IMG/VR virus record: IMGVR_UViG_3300021387_000147
Source of the DNA: a virus
Taxonomy: Duplodnaviria > Caudoviricetes
Length of the DNA: 64,000 nucleotides
Reading direction: 5' to 3' (one strand)
The notes beneath the pieces were generated by a model. The model saw nothing but the letters and a program-made list of their open reading frames with translations, had not been told where the DNA came from and searched no databases. Both the position numbers and the translations under genes were made by a program. Shown one piece after another: positions 2,893-58,700 of this stretch; position 1 is the first letter of the stretch, and each line of letters begins with the position of its first letter.

Positions 2893-3063
2893 CTAAAATT
2901 CAAAATCCTTGTTAGAGTGCTTCTGCTTTCTCGTATACTTCTTCTTATTCGGAATGGAGCGAGTGCGAAGCGTCATGCCGTTATTAGTACCAGCAATTCG
3001 TTCATTACGCATACGTTCATTTTCCTTAGCAGAGTCTTTGATATTTTTCTTATTCTTAGCCAT
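2893..3063 (-). CDS. Small basic protein, ArfA-like ribosome rescue factor candidate
   Basis: 56 aa from ATG 3063; IKDSA and LRTRSIPNKKKYTRKQKH resemble ArfA IKDNA and FRQRVEKNKKGKGSY.RKGKH. Confidence 0.45.
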   Translation of the reverse strand: MAKNKKNIKDSAKENERMRNERIAGTNNGMTLRTRSIPNKKKYTRKQKHSNKDFEF

Positions 3064-3093
3064 AATTCTTAATCTCTTTTTTTTAACAAGTAA

Positions 3094-3150
3094 AATATAA
3101 GTAATTATGGACCTTTTGGAAACCCTTATTTTTGTAAAAAGATGTTTACA
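3094..3150 (-). promoter_or_regulatory. Conserved promoter + palindromic operator (copy 1)
   Basis: TTTCCA(3117-3122)-N17-TATATT(3094-3099); TGTAAA-N6-TTTACA 3133-3150. Confidence 0.85.
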
Positions 3151-3249
3151 AAACCAGGCCTCCAAGGAGCGCTCCAGGGCCTTTTTTGACAGGCCCCTAA
3201 CAATCTATCGTCCAATGGGCTAAAAATGCCCCAAAATAGCCCGTTTTCA

Positions 3250-9468: not shown

Positions 9469-9498
9469 ATTTAAACCTCTTTTAATTTTTACAAGTAT

Positions 9499-9605
9499 AA
9501 TATAAGTATTTTGGAATGTCCTGTCAACCCTAAAATGTGTAAAATATTGTTTACAATACCAAAAAAAGCGCCCTTGGAGACGCTTTTTGTAAATTTTTAT
9601 TAACA
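9499..9605 (-). promoter_or_regulatory. Conserved promoter + operator (copy 2, two boxes)
   Basis: TTGACA(9522-9527)-N17-TATATT(9499-9504); boxes at 9538-9555 and 9588-9605 (1 mismatch). Confidence 0.85.
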
Positions 9606-15329: not shown

Positions 15330-15581
15330 TTACCAACCTTTCATTTCCAAAATGTTCTTCTTTTCTTGAGTTTCGTTTTCCATGTGAAGCAAAGTCACTT
15401 TGTCACCAAAACGATAAGCCCAAATACGTTCATCAGGCCAAACAGAATTATGTTTAGCAATATGGTCAAATGCTTCATCAACGTCATGGAATTCCTGGCA
15501 AATGTGATGAGTCACATTAGAGACTCGCCAAAAGTCAGCTTTTCTAGGGTTCCATTCAAGCAGATATTCAAACTGTGCCAT
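15330..15581 (-). CDS. Hypothetical early protein
   Basis: First gene after promoter copy 3; start reassigned to MAQFEY after GAGG. Confidence 0.7.
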   Translation of the reverse strand: MAQFEYLLEWNPRKADFWRVSNVTHHICQEFHDVDEAFDHIAKHNSVWPDERIWAYRFGDKVTLLHMENETQEKKNILEMKGW

Positions 15582-15610
15582 ATTTATACCTCTTTTATTT
15601 TTACAAGTAA

Positions 15611-15667
15611 AATATAGCAAAAAACAGGGCTTTTGGAAACCCTGTTTTATGTAAAATTATATTTACA
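15611..15667 (-). promoter_or_regulatory. Conserved promoter + operator (copy 3), -35 inside a terminator-like hairpin
   Basis: TTTCCA 15634-15639, TATATT 15611-15616, box 15650-15667, stem 15621-15629/15640-15648. Confidence 0.85.
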
Positions 15668-15672
15668 AAGTG

Positions 15673-19138: not shown

Positions 19139-19868
19139 CTTTCTTACGCCAAATAATTGCTGCAGTCTTGAAGTAATCGCCACTCCATTCGAGAATTCCC
19201 TTATTGTAATCAAGGCACACATTGCGATAATGCGTCAAATCAATTACACGTTCAGGATAGCGCTTTTCAATCTTGCTCTGTTCTTGACCATTTTCGTCAA
19301 ATACACGCTTTTCCATTGCGTAGTTTTCAAAGTCATAACAGAAATAATCTTCCTCAATCGCAAGGTCATGAGTGTGACCATACAAATTAACGAAGTTTCC
19401 ACCCTTTGCAATATAGACAGGTTCATGCGAAAGAATGTATTTGTTTTCGATAATGACAGGAGTATCGTATACTTTGTCAAAACCAAGCGCATAGTAATAG
19501 TCAACACGAGACTTGCCTTCGAAATGCACATTGTCATGATTTCCGAGAACAAGGAACAAGCGACGACCATTTCCCTTCATACGCTTAACCATTTCTTTCA
19601 GTTCATTTATCTTGTCTTCATTCAAGTATTCATTGTGACGACCAGTTCCACAGAAAAAGCAGTCACCCAAATTCCAAATATCGCAGTTGTCAGGAAGATA
19701 GTCGAACATTTTCAAAATATCTTCATTCATGCGATTTACTTCCGGAATGTTTGCCGGATTTCTATTCGAACCTTCAACATGATAAGGACGTCCGCAATAT
19801 TTGATAATATTGGAATGACCCAAATGAAGGTCTGAAATAATAAAAGTCTGTCGAGTTCTTTGCAACAT
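19131..19868 (-). CDS. Calcineurin-like metallophosphoesterase
   Basis: SDLHLGH.NII, LGD, GNHD, SHEP, GHTH. Confidence 0.9.
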   Translation of the reverse strand: MLQRTRQTFIISDLHLGHSNIIKYCGRPYHVEGSNRNPANIPEVNRMNEDILKMFDYLPDNCDIWNLGDCFFCGTGRHNEYLNEDKINELKEMVKRMKGNGRRLFLVLGNHDNVHFEGKSRVDYYYALGFDKVYDTPVIIENKYILSHEPVYIAKGGNFVNLYGHTHDLAIEEDYFCYDFENYAMEKRVFDENGQEQSKIEKRYPERVIDLTHYRNVCLDYNKGILEWSGDYFKTAAIIWRKKDA

Positions 19869-19897
19869 TTAATAATTCCTTAATTTTTACAAGATAT

Positions 19898-19999
19898 AAT
19901 ATAATAAAAAAGGGCTTCATTGGAAACCCTTTTATTTGTAAAATTTTGTTTACGTAGCTGTTCGTAGATTGTTCGTAATATGTAAATAAAATGTTTACA
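19898..19999 (-). promoter_or_regulatory. Conserved promoter + operator (copy 4)
   Basis: TTTCCA 19921-19926, TATATT 19898-19903, box 19937-19954 (1 mismatch), N7 variant box 19981-19999. Confidence 0.8.
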
Positions 20000-25817: not shown

Positions 25818-25827
25818 TTTATTTCCT

Positions 25828-26512
25828 CTATGCTTTCAAAAGTGCAACAATAGTGTCATGTTCCATATCAGTTAAATTAGTGCGATGTTGACGATAAAAT
25901 CCATAAAGAACTCGCATCATAACAGAACCTTTAGTAGAACCTTCAATCCACTTCTTAAATTCTGGCATGTTTTCCCAAGAACCTTCATAGGCTTCAGGAA
26001 CATACATTTCTCCAATGATGCACACATTATGGCCTTCTGCATCTTTCTTAAAAGAGACCGTATGATTCGGTTCAATTCTGACCTTCATATCAAGTTCATT
26101 TGTTTTCACATCGAATGCTATATGCGCTTCCAGAGAATAACCGTTAGCAAAAAGCATTTTAGTTCTACGCATTTTCGTATTCATTTTATGCCTCCAAAAG
26201 AGCAACAATAGTGTCATGTTCAATATCAGTCAAAGCCTGACGATGCTGACGATAGAATTCATAAAGAACTCGTATCATAGCAGAACCTTTGACCCACTTC
26301 TGAAATTCAGGCATGTTTTCCCAAGTGCCTTCGTAATCTTCCGGCTTATACTTAGTTCTGATAACGACATGTTTACCATCTTTATAGTCGAATTCAGCAT
26401 GCATGCCAACATTCATTCTTACTCGCATATCAAGTTCATTCGTTTCTTCATTAAAGCTGAACTGAGCTTCAAGAGAATAACCATTAGCGGAAAGTGTCTT
26501 AGAACGATGCAT
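25828..26512 (-). repeat. Tandemly duplicated gene pair (25828-26184, 26186-26512)
   Basis: Shared ANGYSLEA, TNELDM.VR, YEG.WENMPEF.KW, RVLY.FYRQHR, EHDTIVALL at protein and DNA level. Confidence 0.9.
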
Positions 26513-26542
26513 TTCATTAACCTCTTTAATTTTTACATGTAT

Positions 26543-26599
26543 AATATAAGTATTTTTGGATTCGTTGGAAACCCCTATTTTTGTAAAAAGTTGTTTACA
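26543..26599 (-). promoter_or_regulatory. Conserved promoter + operator (copy 5)
   Basis: TTTCCA 26566-26571, TATATT 26543-26548, box 26582-26599; further perfect box at 26756-26773. Confidence 0.85.
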
Positions 26600-26763
26600 T
26601 TGGACAATTTTAGGCCCTCTAAGGCCCCAGGAGGCCATCCAATTTTGCTCCCAGGCGCATTCTGGGGCATTTTTTAAGGTTTCCCATGTAAATATGCGGC
26701 CATATAAAAAAGACGCCCAAAAGAGCGTCTGGAATATATGTCAATTTTTGACAATTGTAAACT

Positions 26764-27321: not shown

Positions 27322-30300
27322 TTACTTCTTCTTTGTTTTCTTAATTATGAAGTTATCATATTCACATGTCTTAAATGACTTTGTATCAATATCATCGATA
27401 AACTTCTTACTATCCTTAAATAAGTCTGTATGTTCTGCAATCCACTTGACCTTATATTCATAAAGTTCAATAGAATTCAATGAAATACGAGGATGATAAT
27501 CATCTAATGCTTCATTATAAGCACTTGATGCAAGATACTTTTCAAATTCTGTCTTTGCATATTCTCTATATGCATCCTTGATTTCCTTAGAAGCATCACT
27601 TGCTGTAAGATAAGGTTCAATATCAATTGGTGCTAATTCAACAACATCAATCATATCTAATAGAGCATTATAATGTGCATCCTTAAAATCAACGAACTGA
27701 ACTTCCTGAGAGAAATTACGATGCATACGCTTACCAAGCTTGTTAGTAATCAATTCACCATATTCTTTTTCTTTAATATGTGCATATTCATTGACTGCAA
27801 CTTGACGACAATCTGTTAGCTTATCAGCAAGCAAACTTCCAATATAAATATCGTCAATATCAAAGTAGCCAAACCACTTTTTCTTTACAGTTCCTTTTTT
27901 AACTCTCTCTGTTCCAGAATTTCTAGTAATTGTTTCGCCATTTGGAAATTTTACTGTATAATCAAATTGAATATATGGATTTTTAAAACCCTTTGTATAT
28001 ACAATATACACATTATCAATTGTTGCTACAGCGAATTCCTTTGAATTGCTATAAACATTATTCTGACCAACAAAATAATGTGATACAGGTAATTCAATGT
28101 TTCCTACAATCTTTAATTTTGTATCTAAACTACATCCAAAATCTGGAGCTACTTTTTCTGTTAAGATTTCCTTCATTTTATTCCTCATTATTATCCCATT
28201 CATCTGCTATAATGAATGCTGATTCTCTTGCATCGTTAATTATTTTTAATGCTTCTTCTTTTGTAATTGTCTTTACTTCTTCATCATCTTGAATATCGTA
28301 TGATGGAGATATATAAGCCTCTAATTGAACTTGTCCATATCCTTCTGAATTTAAACCTGCATTTAACCAATCATGTTCATTATTATACTTAATATGAATT
28401 ACATTAGCCTTGCATCTTACAAAGTTTCTTCCTTTAAAATCTACAGAAGTAATATGTGCAATTTTAATATCAGATTTATCTTCTCTTGAACCAGCTTTCA
28501 AATACTTTCTTCCATAAGTAATTACGTATTTTCCAGCCCAATCTTGCATGAACTTTTCACGTTCTTTTGCACGTTTTGCTTCTCTAACTTCCTCAAGCTT
28601 CTTATCAGCATCATCTCTTAATGCTTTCAATTCAGCTTCAGTGTTAAAATTCTTTAAAATTTCTTGATTATCCAAAACATCCTCCTGGATTGTCACCTTC
28701 CCATGTATCTTTACCATGTATTTTTTCCATGTCAGCCTTTAATTCTTTACTAAAATCATCTCTGACTAATATAGGATTTTCATCTTTCTTAATCTTGATT
28801 TCAATAAATCTTTCATTACTGTTATTCTTGATTTCATAAGCATTATGCCATGCATTCACATAATCAGTAATTGGAGAACCACACAAAGAAGACTTTACTG
28901 CTTTATCTTTCCATGGCATGTGATAACAAACACCATTAACATAAACATGACACAAGTCATTAGAATTTAATAGACGTTCAATACACTTTTCACCATCAGT
29001 AAAAATAGAGTCAGTTTGTCCCCATGTTGGAACCAATCTTGTTGTATGATGGAAATGCACTTTTTCAGCACAATTGACTTTTAAGAAAAATTCCTTTAAT
29101 ACATATTGCTTCATTAAGTTCTTATGGTGTTTATCCCAAATGAACTGTTCTGATTCAACTTCAAATTGTAAATTTTCAATTGCCCACATATCAATATTGA
29201 TACATTCACAATTGTTAAAAACCAATTCTATTTCTTGATTAGTTAGTGCTACGTCATTCATTATACAATCCTCGATGTACTATCAATACCAAATTTATAA
29301 AACTTTTCTCTTGTTGCATCATCATTTGGATAAACATAAAAACCATTTTCGTCTTTATGAACGGTTGATTTAAATGATTCAAACCATTTCGATCTATTTA
29401 ATAGATTTGTTGGATAAATTTTTTCTTCATCATAATTAATAAACCATCCCTTAAACCAAGCCTTTCCAAATACCCAACAGTGATAAATGATCATTCCTTC
29501 TTTTAGAGAGTCAGGATGATCAGTTAAAATATCTTCAACTCCATCATTATCATATTCATAGTTAGGTTGAACTTCTATAAGATGACCATTTTCATACTTA
29601 TACATTTTATCATTATCTGGAACAGAATCATCTATTGGATGACCATCGTCATCAGTTGGACCATCTGTAGTATCATCATAACTCATGCAATAATCTGAAA
29701 TTGGATCTTTTTCACATTGGCCTGCATATCTTTTAATAATCTTCATTTCTTCTTCAGAAATTGGTTTTGCAGAATTCAACATGTATACAATATCTTCTTT
29801 TGTGAAAATCTGTTCTTCATTAGAACCAATATATGTTGAATATTCATAATCTTTAGGAATCTTTCTTAAAGCTTCCTTTGTTGCGGCTAATTCTTCTTCG
29901 CTCATGAAAGTAAAACAATCAATGTCCATTTCATCAGCCCAATTATATGATGTGTCTAAAATGTAATATTGCATATTAAATGTCCTTAATGTCTAGAGAG
30001 AAACCACCTTCTTCTCCATCTGCTTCATCATCCCAATCACAATGATAACCAAAGTTATATTCGATTGATTTCTTATTCTTAATTGCATCTTTGATCCAAT
30101 CAATAAACATTTGTTTAATTTCTAGGCCAGTAAAACCAGTTGGTCTCTGCATGAATTCTTCAAATGTAGCTTCCTTCTTTCCAGTATAAGTATTATATGC
30201 TTCTTCATCATCCCATGGATAACCATAATCATCACGAGAATCATCAATATAATCTCTTACTTGACTATAACATTCTTTGAATGCTTTTTCTTCGTCTGTT

Positions 30301-30500
30301 CCTTGATATTCAAGACGATGTTCTACACCCATATCATGCTGATAAATTGCATTGACAGTAAAGACAGTTTTCTTCTGTCCTACTTTCATTTCAAGATAAT
30401 CAATGTAATCATAAATCTTATCTGGAACAAAGATATGATTGTTCTTCAGATATTCTTTATATTCTTTTAATTCTTCTGGTGTAGTAATCTTTTCTACCAT
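27322..30500 (-). other. Five hypothetical CDSs (27322-28203, 28178-28717, 28668-29261, 29261-29974, 29976-30500)
   Basis: Tiling ORFs, no recognised motifs; last two acidic. Confidence 0.7.
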
Positions 30501-30865
30501 TTGTTTTTCCTTTTATAATTCTTTCCTGGATTTAAACTATAAGGTTGTTTATTCTTTTTAACTGGAATTGGTGCAACCCATGTTTTTTGAGTAGGAAGTT
30601 CATCAAATTTTGGTACTGAGTCCCATGCTGCGGCTATAATATCATCATCTGCTTTATTATAAATTCTCTTTATTGTATTCTTTAAACCAACAGGACCTTT
30701 TGTAGGTTGAACTCCAACTATTTTATTTGCCATCAATTGTGGGAATACTCTTCTAATGAGTGGCATTCCATAACGAGCCCATTCATTAGGTTCCTCTGCA
30801 TCAATATTAACTAATTGATTGACAAATGTCAACCCTGGATTTTCTAATTCTTCCTCATTTTTCAT
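30494..30865 (-). CDS. Mini-protein carrying the T4 gp23 Gol-peptide-like capsid segment
   Basis: YGMPLIRRVFPQLMANKIVGVQPTKGPVG. Confidence 0.8.
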   Translation of the reverse strand: MKNEEELENPGLTFVNQLVNIDAEEPNEWARYGMPLIRRVFPQLMANKIVGVQPTKGPVGLKNTIKRIYNKADDDIIAAAWDSVPKFDELPTQKTWVAPIPVKKNKQPYSLNPGKNYKRKNKW

Positions 30866-31383
30866 ATATCCATCTTAATTAATTCTACAATTTGATCATA
30901 ACCAGCCTGAGATCCATCACAATCTACGTAAATGAATTTCTCATCATCCAACATTTTTCTAATTCTATTATCGATTTCAATTGCTTCTTCTTCAGTTTGA
31001 TTTCGACCATTAGGATTGTATGCTTTCTTTCGTCTTACAAATATATTTAAAGTTCTCTTATATTTGTGTGCAGTATATAACGCTGCATCTTGATATGGCT
31101 TCTCATCTGTATACATTGATCCAAGTGCAATTGGACTATCAGTAATAATTACATCCACTTTACCTAATAATCTTTCAATCTTTAAGCACTGTTTTCCAAT
31201 TACATATAGCTGACAATGTTGTAATGGGAATTGGTCATCTTGCCAAACTCTATCTTTAGCATATTCTGACACATATTCACAATCGATACCAGCCATTTTC
31301 AACTTTGCAAAAATATATGCAGCACCAGTAGACTTACCTGCTCCTGGTCCTGCAAACAAATTAACAATTAAAGTATTTTTCAT
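30862..31383 (-). CDS. P-loop kinase, NadR/Ttd14 (AAA_28)-like
   Basis: VNLFAGPGAGKST, EYAKD, ITDSP, GRNQTEEEA. Confidence 0.8.
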   Translation of the reverse strand: MKNTLIVNLFAGPGAGKSTGAAYIFAKLKMAGIDCEYVSEYAKDRVWQDDQFPLQHCQLYVIGKQCLKIERLLGKVDVIITDSPIALGSMYTDEKPYQDAALYTAHKYKRTLNIFVRRKKAYNPNGRNQTEEEAIEIDNRIRKMLDDEKFIYVDCDGSQAGYDQIVELIKMDI

Positions 31384-37681: not shown

Positions 37682-38185
37682 TTACTTCAAATCCTCAATA
37701 GAAATTTCATGTTCTTCCATATACTTCTTCATACGAGCGATATGGTATTCCTTTGTCTGAAATTCTTCATGTTCATCAATAAATTCAAAATAATCATCTT
37801 CATCACAGTAAAGTTCACCAACACAACGGTCCCACTGGAGGAAGTTCTGAGTGCATTGACCAATTTCTTCATCAAAAACTACAATTCCATCATTCAAATC
37901 ATAAGAATAATCCAAACTCGGGAACATTTCAGATGCAGACGAATAACTTACACTGTTGTAGTCATCGAGAAATTCTTTGTCATCATCAGACAGTTTTTCA
38001 TAGTCATCTTCAAACTGTTCACGAAGGAATTCAGCGTCAAACTCAGCATCGTCCTTATCAAAGGAAACTACTTCACCAGTCTTTTCGCCAAAACCACCAA
38101 ATCCTTTCATTTCAAGGGTAATGCCATCTTTATGCATAGCCTTAACGAGTTCAAATTCATTAGTAGTGAAATAGTGCTTTGCCAT
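37682..38185 (-). CDS. Highly acidic early protein
   Basis: About 47 of 167 residues D/E; first gene after promoter copy 6. Confidence 0.75.
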   Translation of the reverse strand: MAKHYFTTNEFELVKAMHKDGITLEMKGFGGFGEKTGEVVSFDKDDAEFDAEFLREQFEDDYEKLSDDDKEFLDDYNSVSYSSASEMFPSLDYSYDLNDGIVVFDEEIGQCTQNFLQWDRCVGELYCDEDDYFEFIDEHEEFQTKEYHIARMKKYMEEHEISIEDLK

Positions 38186-38214
38186 AGTTTAACCTCTTTT
38201 TGATTACATAGTAT

Positions 38215-38324
38215 AATATACAAAAAAATATGGGTCTCGGAAACCCATATTTATGTAAAATAACGTTTACAATTGTACATTACAAGGCCTTCAGGAGACC
38301 TTTTTATGTAAATTTTTGTTTACA
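38215..38324 (-). promoter_or_regulatory. Conserved promoter + operator (copy 6, two boxes)
   Basis: TTTCCG 38238-38243, TATATT 38215-38220, boxes 38254-38271 and 38307-38324. Confidence 0.85.
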
Positions 38325-42170: not shown

Positions 42171-43329
42171 GATAAATTCCTTATTCGATATTATAGATTA
42201 TTTTGTCTAAAAAGTTAATAAATTCAAGATAATTCATGCTCATCCACACGCTTTCGTAATTGAAAGAATGAAGATCACCTTGTTTGTAAAAATACATTGC
42301 ATGGATGCAAAGTTTTCCAATTTCCTTTCCATTATAGAATACATGCGTATCACTAAATTGGAAACTCTCAGGATTGTCATACGTAAATGTGCAACCCTTA
42401 GATTTCAGATAATCGCAAACTTCGCCGTAAGTCATAGTTAAAAATTAGAAATTACGAATGCAGTGAGGGCAAGAAAATCTGCCGGGATGGATGCAACCAT
42501 CATAGATGCCTTAATAAACATGTTCTTCATTAGTTAGTCTCCTTTGTAAAATGTTCTTTTATCATTAAAATGAGCAAAATATGCCAGCCAAAAATCCAGG
42601 CAAGTGCACAAAGAAAATTAAAGTACCAATTGCATAGTTTTCTCATTTTGTCTGTTTCCTTATTAAAATTCTGCTTCAGTAAAAAAGATTTCAACTTTGT
42701 CAGGTACCTTTGTCATCAGATAATTGTCATACTTACGAGTAAGTGCAACCTTAAAACCCTTAGACTTCAAATACTTCTTCAATTCATGACCACTCATAAT
42801 GTCGTTTTCACAATCGACTATCACAGAAGCCTTATGATTTCTCCATGCATTGATAATTGCACGCTCAATCGTATACAAATACCTGTCCAGCTTTTCCTGT
42901 TTTTCCTGTTCAGGCTTAATCTTAGGAATTGTGCGAAGTTGAGTCAGACTAATCATTTTTGTCTCCTTAGTCGTTATAAGTGTAAGCACAACGATGAGCA
43001 GCGAGCTGTTCAATCAGCCAATCATGGAATTCTTCAAACGGAATTTCCTTTTCAGTGCGGTCAAAACCAGCATGCGAGCGAGAAGATACCCATTCAAATT
43101 CAACAATCTTGTCAGTAGACTTAACCTTCTGTCGCAAATCATGACCAAGATAAAGAATGACTGTGACGTTTTTCTTTTCATGCATTTCGCCAGCATATTC
43201 CACATTCTCAGTATAAACTTCTTCACTGATGCCGACAATCTTAGGAATGATTACGGTATCTTTTGAACCAGCTGGATGACGAACTTGGAACATTTGCATT
43301 GTTTTAACCTCTTTTATTTTAACAAGTAA

Positions 43330-43438
43330 AATATACTAAATTTGGAACTACTCGGAAACCCCTTTTTATGTAAAAAGAAGTTTACAATAGAGCCCAGAAT
43401 GGTCCCTGGAAGCCATTTTTTGTAAAATTTAGTTTACA
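43330..43438 (-). promoter_or_regulatory. Conserved promoter + operator (copy 7, two boxes) at the strand switch
   Basis: TTTCCG 43353-43358, TATATT 43330-43335, boxes 43369-43386 and 43421-43438. Confidence 0.85.
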
Positions 43439-43472: not shown

Positions 43473-44114
43473 ATGAGTGAACCTAAATTGCCATCATGGA
43501 TGAATTATTCTGACTATGAAGATATTATGCATTATCTTCGTCTTTTTGGAGAAATAAAACCTTATTATTTGAAAGCTGAAGATGTATTTAATGCTGAACA
43601 AGAAGTCATGAAAAGAAAGATGGATGATGGTTTAAGACTTATTGACGTTGCTAAAGAAATGATTTGGAGCTATAAATATAAGGAAAGATGGCATCAATTA
43701 CCAAAGGATGAAAATATGGATTTAACAGAAGCAAAACAAGTATTAACAGACAATGGTTATCTGTTAAAAGAAAATACAAATGAATTGACTAAACAAGAAA
43801 AATATGCATTATTATACTTGTTATTAAAAGAACAAGGTGTAAAGTTAGTTGCAAATTTTAAAGATAGTGTAATTGATGACCAAGAAATTGATTTTGTTAT
43901 TGATAACAAATATCCAGCAAGTATCAAGAATGGTCAATTTGGTGGTATGAGTGATGATTTAGCTGATGATCCAGATACAATCTATTATGCAGTTTGGTTC
44001 TCTGATGATGAAGATGATTATAGAGAAGAAACCTATGATATAAACGAAATCATAGAATACGTTAAAGCTGGAAAATGGAATCAGTTCGTTAAAGAAGAAT
44101 TATTAAGTTGGTAA
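43473..44114 (+). CDS. Hypothetical protein with nested leader-family start at 43716
   Basis: Internal TATAAATA 43671-43678, AAGGA RBS, MDLTEAKQVLTDNGYLLKE. Confidence 0.75.
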   Translation: MSEPKLPSWMNYSDYEDIMHYLRLFGEIKPYYLKAEDVFNAEQEVMKRKMDDGLRLIDVAKEMIWSYKYKERWHQLPKDENMDLTEAKQVLTDNGYLLKENTNELTKQEKYALLYLLLKEQGVKLVANFKDSVIDDQEIDFVIDNKYPASIKNGQFGGMSDDLADDPDTIYYAVWFSDDEDDYREETYDINEIIEYVKAGKWNQFVKEELLSW

Positions 44115-44124
44115 GGAATAAAGT

Positions 44125-44673
44125 ATGAATTTAAATGAAGCAAAACAAATCCTAAAGAATGCTGGCTATATCATTGAAGATACTGAAACCAATGATGAAG
44201 AATATGATGCATTATATAATGAATGGGATAAAAAATGGGGTTCAGATCCAGCTATAAATACTCTTATTAAGAAAATGCATAAAGTTAGTAATAAGCGTAT
44301 GGATTTAAAAGATAAGATTGACAACGCAAAGAAGTTCAATTCTAATATTGATAGAATGAAGAAAGATGCAGTCAATATTTTCAAGCAAGCATTTCATGAA
44401 GATGAAGTGACTGACAATGGAGATGGTACGTATACAATAGTTCCTATGAGTGAATATGATATTGAAGCTATCTATAAGTGGGATGATAATGATACTTTGT
44501 CTTGTAAATTTAATTATTCAGACAATGTATTGACATTCAAGCATCTCAGCAAACACTTGAAATATGATCCTAAGGGTGGACCTTGGCAGGAAGGTCAATG
44601 GTCAGGCGATGAAGCACTTGAAAACTTCATTTCAGACTTGGCATTTGAATATCAAAATGCAATGAGTGTATAA
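44125..44673 (+). CDS. Leader-family protein (putative internal head protein)
   Basis: MNLNEAKQILKNAGYIIE. Confidence 0.75.
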   Translation: MNLNEAKQILKNAGYIIEDTETNDEEYDALYNEWDKKWGSDPAINTLIKKMHKVSNKRMDLKDKIDNAKKFNSNIDRMKKDAVNIFKQAFHEDEVTDNGDGTYTIVPMSEYDIEAIYKWDDNDTLSCKFNYSDNVLTFKHLSKHLKYDPKGGPWQEGQWSGDEALENFISDLAFEYQNAMSV

Positions 44674-44684
44674 AAGGTTATAAT

Positions 44685-44969
44685 ATGAATTTAAATGAAG
44701 CAAAACAGATTTTAAAGAATGCTGGATATATCATTGAAAGATATGATCTTGACTATGATTCAGTAAATTCTTCTTTTGATGAAGAAAAACGTCTTGAAAA
44801 GTTTGGTGAATATCTATATGAAGTAAGAGAATTATTATATCGTAAAGGCTTCAGTAGAGGTAAACAAGCTGATAATTATGATGAATTACATGATATAGCA
44901 CATAGATGTTGTAGATTAGGTAAATCTATTGAAGACTGTGCTAAAGAAATAATTTTTACAATAAAATAA
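44685..44969 (+). CDS. Leader-family protein (putative internal head protein)
   Basis: MNLNEAKQILKNAGYIIE. Confidence 0.75.
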   Translation: MNLNEAKQILKNAGYIIERYDLDYDSVNSSFDEEKRLEKFGEYLYEVRELLYRKGFSRGKQADNYDELHDIAHRCCRLGKSIEDCAKEIIFTIK

Positions 44970-55166: not shown

Positions 55167-55442
55167 TTATTTTTCCTCTTTTTTTGGATCTTTTGTAAAA
55201 ACTTGGGACACGTATGGACAAAAGATGACTCCACTATTTCCATTCTTTTTCTTAATTTGTTCTGCCAAAAATTCATATAATGGGTCACCAGGTTCACACC
55301 ATTTTGGAATCTCATTTGCTATCAATTCTTCATCTGGAATTTTATAACTTCCTTTAAATGGAAGTAAAATACCATCTAAATCCTGACTATAAAGATCTCT
55401 GTAAATCTTCACATCTTTTTTGCCTTTCTTTGATGAACTCAT
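55167..55442 (-). CDS. Mini-protein resembling a C-terminal segment of T4-type major capsid protein
   Basis: VKIYRDLY...ILLPFKGS and SGVIFCPYV. Confidence 0.45.
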   Translation of the reverse strand: MSSSKKGKKDVKIYRDLYSQDLDGILLPFKGSYKIPDEELIANEIPKWCEPGDPLYEFLAEQIKKKNGNSGVIFCPYVSQVFTKDPKKEEK

Positions 55443-55780: not shown

Positions 55781-58700
55781 TTAAAACTCATCTTTCATTA
55801 TTCCTTCCCAACACGATTGTCTATAATCTAAAATCTTTCTAAGTTTAGATAATTGCTCTGGACTATTTCCATAATAGATATAACCTTCATATACAATCCA
55901 AAAATTCATTGTTCCATCTGGACCACCAAATCCAAATGCTCCTTTAAAGTCAGCATATAAAGATTGCCATTTCTTATATTCATGCACAGTAATTTTATCA
56001 GGTGGTCCAAAAGGATTGAAGAAACCAACTGTCATTTCACTCATTCAATAACCTCTTTTACTGTTGGTCTTTTAGAAACAAGCTGAGTAATTTGTATTCT
56101 CTGTGCTTTATCTGGTAAGTAATAACAAAATCCTTGATATTCAACAATAGCATCTATACCAAACATCATGATACTTCTCATAGTGTCCCAAAATTCATTT
56201 TTATCATGTTTAGGGTCACCTTCATAGTAAACAACTATATTAGGATTCTTTCCTCTACCCCATGTTATTGTTCCAATATAATCACCTATCACTTTGCATT
56301 CCTTTGTAATTAAATTCACATAGAAAATCCATCCAATCTGGATTATATTTCAAATTATACAAATGACTATGATAAGAAGCAACTAAAATAGATTTTCTAT
56401 ATTGATTATTATCAAACATTTTTAAAAAATCTAAATTACTTCTATACTTACGTAATGCAGTAAAGATTTCTTCTTTATCAAAATAATCATCTTTATAAGA
56501 TGCTGCATACATATTAGAACGTGATTTGGTAATATCAGTAAATACAACTGCTATACTATCTGGGCGATGGTCTGCACCAATATCTAAAAATTCATCTAAT
56601 GAAGTTCTCATAAATCTGGACATCCTTGATAATTTAAAGCATGTATAAATTCTTGCCAATCAGAATCAAATTTTACATTATAAAGTTTATCATGATAAAG
56701 TATTAAAAATATAGAATCTTCATATAATTCAAAATTGAAAGTTTTTAAAAAACCTAAATTTCTATGATAACGCAGCGCACAATTAAAAATTGCTTCTTTA
56801 GTCTTATAATTATCTTCATAATTAGCCATACTTATATCATTTAAAGATGTTATATCAGTATACAACATAATTGCTTCATCTGGTCTTTGATCTGATATAG
56901 GATGTGAAAATACTTCCATAGTACTCATACTTTTAATTCCTTAATTAAGCGCTGTTTAACTTGTCTTAATCTATTAATGTCAGTGCAATCCCAAATATAA
57001 CCATCATATTCAACAAAGAAAATTTCATCGCCAACTGTAGGATAGTAATCAAATTCATGTTCAACATTAGAAATCTTAGTCCATAACGAATATGGGCTTA
57101 AACACTCATGAAATTTAATTTCATCATCATAATCAGGTACTTTGTAAATTACTGCGTATTTCTTCATGGTTCCATTCCATTTGCAATCATTGCTCTAATC
57201 AATTCCATTGCATTTTCACCATTAGGTTCTGTTAAATTGTAAATATATCCATCAAATTCAATTAACAAATATTGCAAATTATAGACATAAGATTGGATTT
57301 TTGTAATCATGTTTATAATTTCTTGTTCAGAAGAAACTTCAGCACACATAGGTCTTTCATTTGTTGATTTTGGAATTGGTCCTGACCAAACTAATGTTGC
57401 TTTCATTTTGTTTGCATCCTTTCTTCTTGTATTTTCTTTCTATATGAATACAATTCTTCATATAATATAGCATTATCTTTTCTTGCTTTTGTTGTTCCAA
57501 AATCTGTAGCATTATAAATTGTTCCATTAAATTCAACAATAATATAATTAGGGTTATACAACATATTTTGCAAATGAGTTAAATTATCAATTATATCATC
57601 AATATCATTATATTCTTTATAACGAGGCGGAAGATTTGAATATGTTCCCGCCTTATTATTATATGCATCCCATACAATTGTCCCTAACATATATAAAGCT
57701 CTCTTAGTTCCTTTAATAACCATTCATTTGCTGCTTCTAATTTTTCATGATTTAAGAAATCATTAAATTTATCCATATTATCTTCATCTGTCACATTAAA
57801 TACATATCCATGATATTCAACTAAAATATAATCAGGTTCAACAAATGGACGATGCTGTAATCTTTTAATTTCATTCAACATTGTTTCTAAATTTTCATAT
57901 TCTTTATACATAGCATGTGTACATTTATCTTCTTCATTACAAATTATTACACAGTTATGAAAATGCCAAGTTATAGTTCCTATCATATTTTCCTTTATCT
58001 GAGCCAATCATCAATTTTTCTTAATAATTCTTTTGATTCTTCTGAATTAAAATTTGTTGCATCATAAATCATTCCATCAAATTCAACAAGAATATAATCA
58101 GGTCTATATAAAAAATATTGTAAATCTATTATCTTATAACGTAAATTTTGAATATTATTAAATTCGCAAACATTTGGATAAGGAGACTGTATACATCTAG
58201 GTTGATCCTCATGTGCTGTATTTGTATAAATTATTGTTGCTGTCATAAAATACTTTCCTTCATGTAATGTATATCAATCCAATCATCAATAATTTGTATT
58301 ACTTTTGGATCTGTGCCATTATAAATCTTACCATCAAATTCAACCAAAAGATAATCAGGTGAATATAACAAATATTGAAAGCTTTTCAATTTATTTCGTA
58401 ATTTCTCCATATCAGTGAATTCCATAACTCGCGGTTTTTCTATTTTAAAATTTTGCAAATTACGATTATGCACAACATTAAAAACTTGTTGTATAGATTC
58501 ATTTGAAAAAACTATTGTTCCTATCATTAATAAATCCTTAATTCAAAATCATGTAAAAAATTTCTATAAGCTTTATAATCAGTCAAATTGTAAATATATC
58601 CATCTAATTCAACAAGCAAACTATTTCCATCTAAACTTCCATATAATGTTCTTAAATATTCTGCTACCTTTTGAATAATTGCATAAAATTTTAATGGATC

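Follow-up and report, generated by a model that had tools for sequence, protein, structure and literature searches.

A stand-alone gene for a capsid-derived mini-protein spanning the Gol region, and its relatives on giant-phage contigs

The window, that is, the whole stretch of viral DNA analysed here (Caudoviricetes; IMG/VR record IMGVR_UViG_3300021387_000147), is 64,000 nucleotides long, and the GC content is about 0.31. It contains a long run of minus-strand genes, among them those for a DNA ligase, an RNA ligase, RtcB, a NadD/Nudix fusion and phosphoesterases. Within this run lies a 123-aa open reading frame (ORF) whose middle part is related to the major capsid proteins (MCPs) of T4-type phages. 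The gene, its parts and its neighbours are arranged as follows.

30862..31383, minus strand: upstream gene for a 173-aa P-loop kinase (Pfam AAA_28), joined to the start of the mini-gene by an ATGA overlap.
30494..30865, minus strand: gene of the capsid-derived mini-protein, the 123-aa ORF of the ORF list, stop codon included.
30824..30865, minus strand: codons 1-14, the acidic N-terminus MKNEEELENPGLTF, nucleotide-identical in 15 of 15 distinct alleles.
30602..30796, minus strand: residues 24-88, homologous to residues ~71-137 of T4-type MCPs (BLASTP, MCP profile and alignments).
30686..30766, minus strand: residues 34-60, the Gol core, aligned to T4 gp23 residues 96-122 (Pfam and PDB alignment).
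30569..30709, minus strand: residues 53-99, all or part of which is missing from 49 of 70 relative clusters owing to in-frame deletions.
30497..30568, minus strand: residues 100-123, the basic C-terminal tail IPVKKNKQPYSLNPGKNYKRKNKW, nearly invariant.
29976..30500, minus strand: downstream gene for a 174-aa acidic protein, which shares 7 nt at its start with the end of the mini-gene.

The 123-aa ORF is a real gene, kept by selection. It is complete and internal to the contig, lies outside a structural module, and its Gol core is flanked by sequence that is not of capsid type. Its family is marked by a tail of its own, QP[FY]SLNPGKNYKRKNKW, and by a fixed position after the P-loop kinase gene, for which searches of NCBIfam and the PDB gave no sharper function. 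The next gene has its ribosome-binding site and its start within the last codons of the ORF, and the gene found at this downstream position varies among related contigs. The tail motif and the N-terminal motif have no other copy within the window, so they are not a multi-copy tag here. A search of the window with our own MCP profile, built from 12 related MCPs, found no full capsid gene. The mini-gene is a stand-alone gene, distinct from the capsid gene.

Two further observations concern other parts of the window. On the minus strand at 55167-55442, a 91-aa ORF without a Pfam match scores 18 bits (E 1.7e-4) against our MCP profile and ends in ...VIFCPYVSQVF, which resembles the conserved C-terminal FCPYV motif of T4-type capsid proteins; by its sequence, it is a candidate for a second mini-gene made from a capsid fragment. 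At 56980-58620, small paralogous genes follow one another in tandem with a period of ~250-285 nt (repeat families D3-D5).

The mini-protein originates from a capsid protein. The Pfam Gp23 profile (PF07068) matches the 123-aa ORF significantly, with an E-value of 8.3e-10 and 39 bits against a cut-off of 24.4, over profile positions 3-51 of 376. PHROG 138 (major head protein) matches with an E-value of 8.8e-9, and our own MCP profile with 81.5 bits (E 1e-23) over residues 24-88, at profile positions 71-137. Judged by these sequence scores, the match is far beyond chance. The original prediction had singled out residues 32-60, at 30686-30772, as a Gol-like capsid fragment, and reading the ORF confirms both the residues and their place. 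The T4 Gol sequence given with that prediction agrees with the gp23 chains in the PDB. Residues 96-139 of one such chain (6uzc_a) align to ORF residues 34-79, and a recount of the ungapped alignment again gives 13 identities among the 29 Gol residues. The homology thus includes gp23 residues ~94-122, the Gol peptide.

The capsid-like part of the ORF is considerably larger than this peptide. BLASTP aligns ORF residues 29-88 to residues 81-141 of the MCP P0076 at 51% identity, and against some MCPs the alignment spans from ORF residue 11 to residues 87-101. In the multiple alignment, the mini-protein tracks MCP residues ~60-150, including the conserved AW.SVP block that follows the Gol core. The gene therefore represents roughly the first part of the mature MCP, not merely a 29-residue peptide, and the view that precisely the Gol segment had been kept has to be replaced: ~65-90 residues of the N-terminal region of the MCP are retained. 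The flanks, which were thought not to look like capsid, are indeed not capsid-like at residues ~1-10 and 100-123 taken alone, but between these ends the homology covers residues 24-88 and, at its widest, residues 11-101. The closest MCP in the set that was compared directly is at most ~52% identical, and an exhaustive search of representatives gave nothing closer over the full piece. With no higher identity than this to any MCP retrieved, the mini-gene is not a recent copy. The cognate MCP is probably of the 443-aa class that is found on contigs of 218-421 kb.

A database-wide search gave 72 short homologues, which lie on contigs of up to 494 kb. They form ~70 clusters with an intact frame, on giant-phage contigs from the gut of sheep and other ruminants, and the DNA of the window is found in public runs from sheep-gut samples. 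At every locus that was examined, the kinase gene is the immediate upstream neighbour of the mini-gene, again with the 4-nt ATGA overlap. Among the 70 aligned clusters, 21 are of full length (122-124 aa) and 49 have internal deletions, and forms of 76-78 aa are the commonest among the relatives. The deletions have six extents: residues 53-99 (34 clusters), 53-97 (9), 53-85 (3), 55-81 (1), 55-90 (1) and 50-99 (1). All six are in frame, and all of them spare the N-terminus, the tail and the first half of the Gol core. As the full form is collinear with the MCPs, it is the ancestral one, and the short forms are derived from it.

A few relatives are disrupted. P0075 and P0126 look frameshifted, and in P0073 the N-terminal 44 residues are joined to unrelated sequence. 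The diverged relatives at L022 433-697 and L023 1459-1717 have a common frameshift in the middle of the Gol core. Both frames, before and after the frameshift, show coding-type substitutions there and the tail is conserved, so the gene may be split into two ORFs at these loci, or a ribosomal frameshift may be needed to read it.

Longer, fused forms were not found at the strict E-value of the database-wide search, which is weak evidence against them. A scan of GTDB genome contigs gave no relative, and the ESM Atlas gave sub-threshold neighbours only. In a collection of cultured phages, none resembles the phage of the window at the DNA level. At the protein level there are 178 matches, each with one matching place per record; every listed match in an annotated record lies in a capsid gene, and the top match, in an unannotated record, falls within a 491-aa MCP-like ORF.

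The minus-strand run is punctuated by seven copies of an intergenic cassette of ~75-96 nt.

3056-3151, minus strand: cassette copy.
9481-9555, minus strand: cassette copy.
15573-15668, minus strand: cassette copy.
19860-19955, minus strand: cassette copy.
26505-26600, minus strand: cassette copy, by its sequence probably the downstream end of the transcription unit of the mini-gene.
38177-38272, minus strand: cassette copy, likewise probably the upstream limit of that unit.
43292-43387, minus strand: cassette copy.

On the minus strand, each cassette has an inverted TGTAAA/TTTACA pair and a GC-rich hairpin with a T-run, which resembles a terminator. A promoter-like stretch rich in A and T comes next, before the ribosome-binding site and the start codon. 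We take the cassettes to resemble the "promoter-early stem-loop" shuffling cassettes of T4-type phages. No late-promoter motif TATAAATA is present in the unit between the cassettes at 38177-38272 and 26505-26600, and the nearest upstream motif on the same strand is 14.7 kb away from the mini-gene, beyond a terminator. The gene content and the lack of a late promoter nearby suggest that the operon is of the early type, from which we infer the time of its expression. The placement of a stand-alone gene in an early-gene region, as originally predicted, agrees with this picture. The region is present as contigs in sheep-gut metatranscriptome runs, a presence that does not show transcription.

Two further features of the DNA near a cassette or near late-promoter motifs may be recorded. 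At 25820-26514, segments of the repeat families D7, D10 and D14 are duplicated next to each other, at 72-82% identity and a distance of ~340-360 nt, which points to two small paralogous genes in tandem immediately upstream of the cassette at 26505. Three genes share a leader of ~18 residues, MNLNEAKQ..L....GY, at 43710-43769, 44119-44178 and 44679-44738, behind plus-strand TATAAATA motifs.

The selection that acts on the parts of the mini-gene was estimated from the 15 distinct DNA alleles by pairwise Nei-Gojobori-type counts with a codon bootstrap. With the reservation that the pairwise sums are non-independent and that recombination among the alleles is likely, pN/pS is 0.76 for residues 15-33, 0.52 for the Gol core at residues 34-60 (95% CI 0.28-1.05), 0.73 for residues 61-88 and 0.67 for the whole capsid-like part, residues 24-88 (95% CI 0.43-1.08), against 0.18 for the tail, residues 100-123, and 0.16 for the neighbouring kinase gene at nine of the same loci (pS 0.133). 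The mini-protein shares 22 positions that show at least 95% invariance among related MCPs, and even for these pN/pS is 0.41 (CI 0.10-1.27). In codons 1-14, pS is 0 and pN is 0.011. The capsid-like part is thus much less constrained than the tail, the neighbouring gene and the same positions in real MCPs, a pattern that fits relaxed or diversifying selection. The constraint on the Gol core within the clade appears to be weak.

Absence of purifying selection on the segment, or its absence from relatives, had been named beforehand as a mark of random capsid debris. A part of this is what the alleles display, as the pN/pS of the Gol core (0.52) indicates weak constraint and the second half of the core is missing in 49 of the 70 clusters. 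Random debris is nevertheless excluded: the deletions are in frame, the tail is constrained, and distant homologues have the same layout.

A gradual decay is a different matter. The mini-gene might be an old partial duplicate of a capsid gene that is being whittled away, with selection preserving only its two ends, DNA signals within it, or the translational coupling of the kinase gene to the next gene. The difference in pN/pS between residues 24-88 and the tail or the neighbouring gene would be expected in this case, as would the progressive series of deletions with its predominance of 76-78-aa forms and the occurrence of frameshifted and replaced alleles. The two conserved ends of the ORF could also be explained. 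At the 3' end, the final codons contain both the start codon of the next gene and its ribosome-binding site. Codons 1-14, which are without any synonymous change, overlap a perfect TTGACA-17-TAATAT promoter-like site at 30832-30804 on the minus strand (codons 12-21), in which both hexamers are invariant in all alleles and the spacer is variable. This site could be an internal promoter, and this could account for the missing synonymous change at the 5' end; promoter-like matches, however, occur in the AT-rich DNA of the window at no more than chance frequency. In addition, all in-frame short forms keep the first half of the core, of the PLVRRVFPQLMANK type, which speaks against a relic, and the distant homologues point in the same direction.

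Two of these homologues, which came from the exhaustive search of representatives, have the same layout as the mini-protein. P0083 (107 aa) is encoded on a 266-kb contig by a gene that has an ATGA overlap with the preceding gene, and two adjacent Cpn10 (GroES-like) genes are found 3 kb downstream of it (L024 8338-8954). P0078 (102 aa) is encoded near a gene for a gp44-type clamp loader. Both proteins are 36-46% identical to the ORF overall and have kept a Gol core as well as a basic tail. AWxSVP is also present in P0078, and the tail motif QP[FY]SLNP in P0083. The Gol core is intact in them and is their best-conserved block, which argues against decay. The exhaustive search of representatives gave ~25 further ones (50%-identity clusters) that are short, start with Met and carry the Gol core among their first ~45 residues. 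In at least 11 of these, the tail is clearly not of capsid type, and some tails have an ending of their own that recurs, such as ...DWKTEGF; a few of the ~25 may be N-terminally truncated MCPs. In a low-resolution tree built from 66 shared columns, the stand-alone cores are scattered among different MCP lineages. This suggests repeated capture, or co-evolution with the resident capsid gene. The capture of one and the same stretch by many unrelated mini-proteins also speaks against a relic. Decay of an old duplicate is less likely than not, but it is the main rival of the account preferred below.

Structure predictions give some indication of how a free copy of this stretch might behave. An AF2 prediction of the mini-protein with the family alignment (mean pLDDT 56.5) contains low-confidence helices only and no confident fold. 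In the model of a related 443-aa MCP (mean pLDDT 70), the equivalent stretch has a disordered arm, from which a short helix that covers the RR motif and a turn lead to a long strand, which pairs with distant parts of the fold. The sequence of the strand after the core, hydrophobic GLAFALRYIY in the MCPs, has become polar GLKNTIKRIY in the mini-protein family. The two models suggest that a free copy is unlikely to fold alone and that, if it acts, it would act as a peptide-type ligand.

The Lit exclusion system is that of the e14 prophage. In T4, Gol is defined by 29 residues of gp23 and binds domains II-III of EF-Tu-GDP, making EF-Tu cleavable by Lit; scanning mutagenesis has found 13 critical residues within a 20-residue core (PMC3014915). 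With a longer piece of gp23, ~100 residues of its first quarter, the binding to EF-Tu is more stable than with the 29 residues of Gol. Gol is also the most conserved part of gp23 across the T4-like phages, which has led to the suggestion that all these MCPs bind the EF-Tu of the host (PMC3014915). More generally, Lit and CapRel detect MCPs via short motifs, the MCP sensor Avs7 has EF-Tu as a structural cofactor, and EF-Tu is a cofactor or target in Lit, Avs7 and type IV Thoeris (10.64898/2026.01.04.697583).

By combining these results, we arrive tentatively at the following description, which we put ahead of the alternatives. The mini-protein may be an accessory peptide which the phage can do without; by mimicking the Gol region of the MCP, it would bind the partner of that region, most likely EF-Tu. 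The gene arose from the N-terminal region of a T4-type MCP, ~residues 60-150, which comprises the start of the mature protein and the Gol peptide, and its product now has a short acidic stretch at the N-terminus and a basic tail at the C-terminus. The protein would be produced from its early-type operon well ahead of the capsid protein. The product might then serve as a free Gol-type peptide ligand for the same cellular partner that is contacted by the Gol region of the nascent capsid protein. In T4, this partner is EF-Tu, by its domains II and III, and the mini-protein would pre-occupy or modulate it. A possible purpose is counter-defence against sensing that is linked to EF-Tu or directed at capsid motifs. 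In the sheep-gut clade, the function would be dispensable or under fluctuating selection, with a Gol part that evolves fast and is often shortened.

The recurrent capture of the stretch and its conservation in distant stand-alone homologues argue for a portable binding function, and the precedent of T4 makes EF-Tu the best candidate for the partner, which we infer on this basis. The weak constraint on the core, the loss of half of the core in most alleles and the disruption of some alleles all speak against a Gol-type ligand, as does the effect of free Gol on Lit in T4, which is described below.

A more specific possibility, and the main idea of the original prediction, is that the mini-protein is a decoy, which occupies a Gol-motif sensor or EF-Tu without activating it before the real capsid protein appears. 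Sensing of MCPs by short motifs is known from Lit and CapRel, and EF-Tu is a cofactor or target in several systems (10.64898/2026.01.04.697583). Fast evolution, variation in presence and absence, and an early accessory neighbourhood are typical of counter-defence genes. A precedent for countering a sensor of a structural protein is the phage protein DSAD1, which is reported to counteract DSR2, a sensor that is triggered by the tail tube (PMC11087589). In T4, however, the free Gol peptide activates the Lit defence rather than blocking it (PMC3014915), so an early copy of Gol could be a liability to the phage. The pattern of losses could equally represent selection to discard a trigger. We therefore regard a decoy as unlikely. 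A broader version of the same idea is slightly less likely still, namely that T4-like giant phages have repeatedly turned the Gol stretch of their MCP into an early free peptide, which occupies EF-Tu or the Gol sensor and blunts capsid-triggered abortive infection, the deletions and the rapid change being the trace of an arms race.

An improbable alternative is a capsid-assembly or folding factor, in which the free N-terminal piece would bind the MCP, the scaffold or a chaperonin and so tune folding and assembly or poison a competing T4-like phage: the piece comprises the end of the N-arm and the first strands of the MCP, which normally pair with other parts or with neighbouring subunits, the gp23 N-terminus is reported to direct proteins to GroEL, and P0083 is close to two Cpn10 co-chaperonin genes, but the mini-gene is in an early operon outside the late structural module, no Cpn10 gene is seen near it in the window, and the change from hydrophobic to polar residues argues against pairing of the strand inside a capsid.

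Gol is the classic example of a phage peptide that is read by a bacterial suicide system, and why it binds EF-Tu is a question that has stood for decades. A natural, separate copy would offer a handle on this question. Copies of the Gol core recur in many uncultured giant phages, and the clade described here contains a ready-made natural series of deletion variants. Should it prevent capsid sensing, the copy would represent a novel kind of counter-defence, made from the molecular pattern of the phage itself; if it is only a relic, it documents the recycling and loss of capsid-gene debris in the genomes of giant phages. A search of the literature gave no description of separately encoded, stand-alone genes for capsid fragments, an absence that is not proof.

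The mini-protein shares significant sequence homology with the T4-type MCP family. The MCPs of the Gp23 family (PF07068) have the whole HK97-type fold, which corresponds to ~376 profile positions and ~400-520 aa, and a genuine relative, P0203, matches profile positions 3-355; the mini-protein matches positions 3-51 and has 123 aa, so that it has about a quarter of the length and the rest of the fold is missing. MCP genes lie in the late structural module beside the genes for the scaffold and the prohead protease and behind a late promoter, as at the real MCP locus L015, where a scaffold gene is adjacent, whereas the mini-gene lies outside such a module, between the P-loop kinase gene and genes without an assigned function.

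With regard to systems that counter a structural-protein sensor, DSAD1 is said to compete with the tail tube for the DSR2 sensor, and to our knowledge it is not a fragment of its trigger protein. It represents the type of mechanism that a decoy would need.

The closest comparison is with the Gol region of T4 gp23 itself. The stretches are homologous, and the mini-protein spans about the same first-quarter region with which T4 gp23 binds EF-Tu stably. In the mini-protein, the strand that follows the core is polar instead of hydrophobic. In T4, Gol is a part of the late capsid gene, whereas here it is encoded by a separate, early-type gene of 123 aa, with an acidic start and a basic tail of its own.
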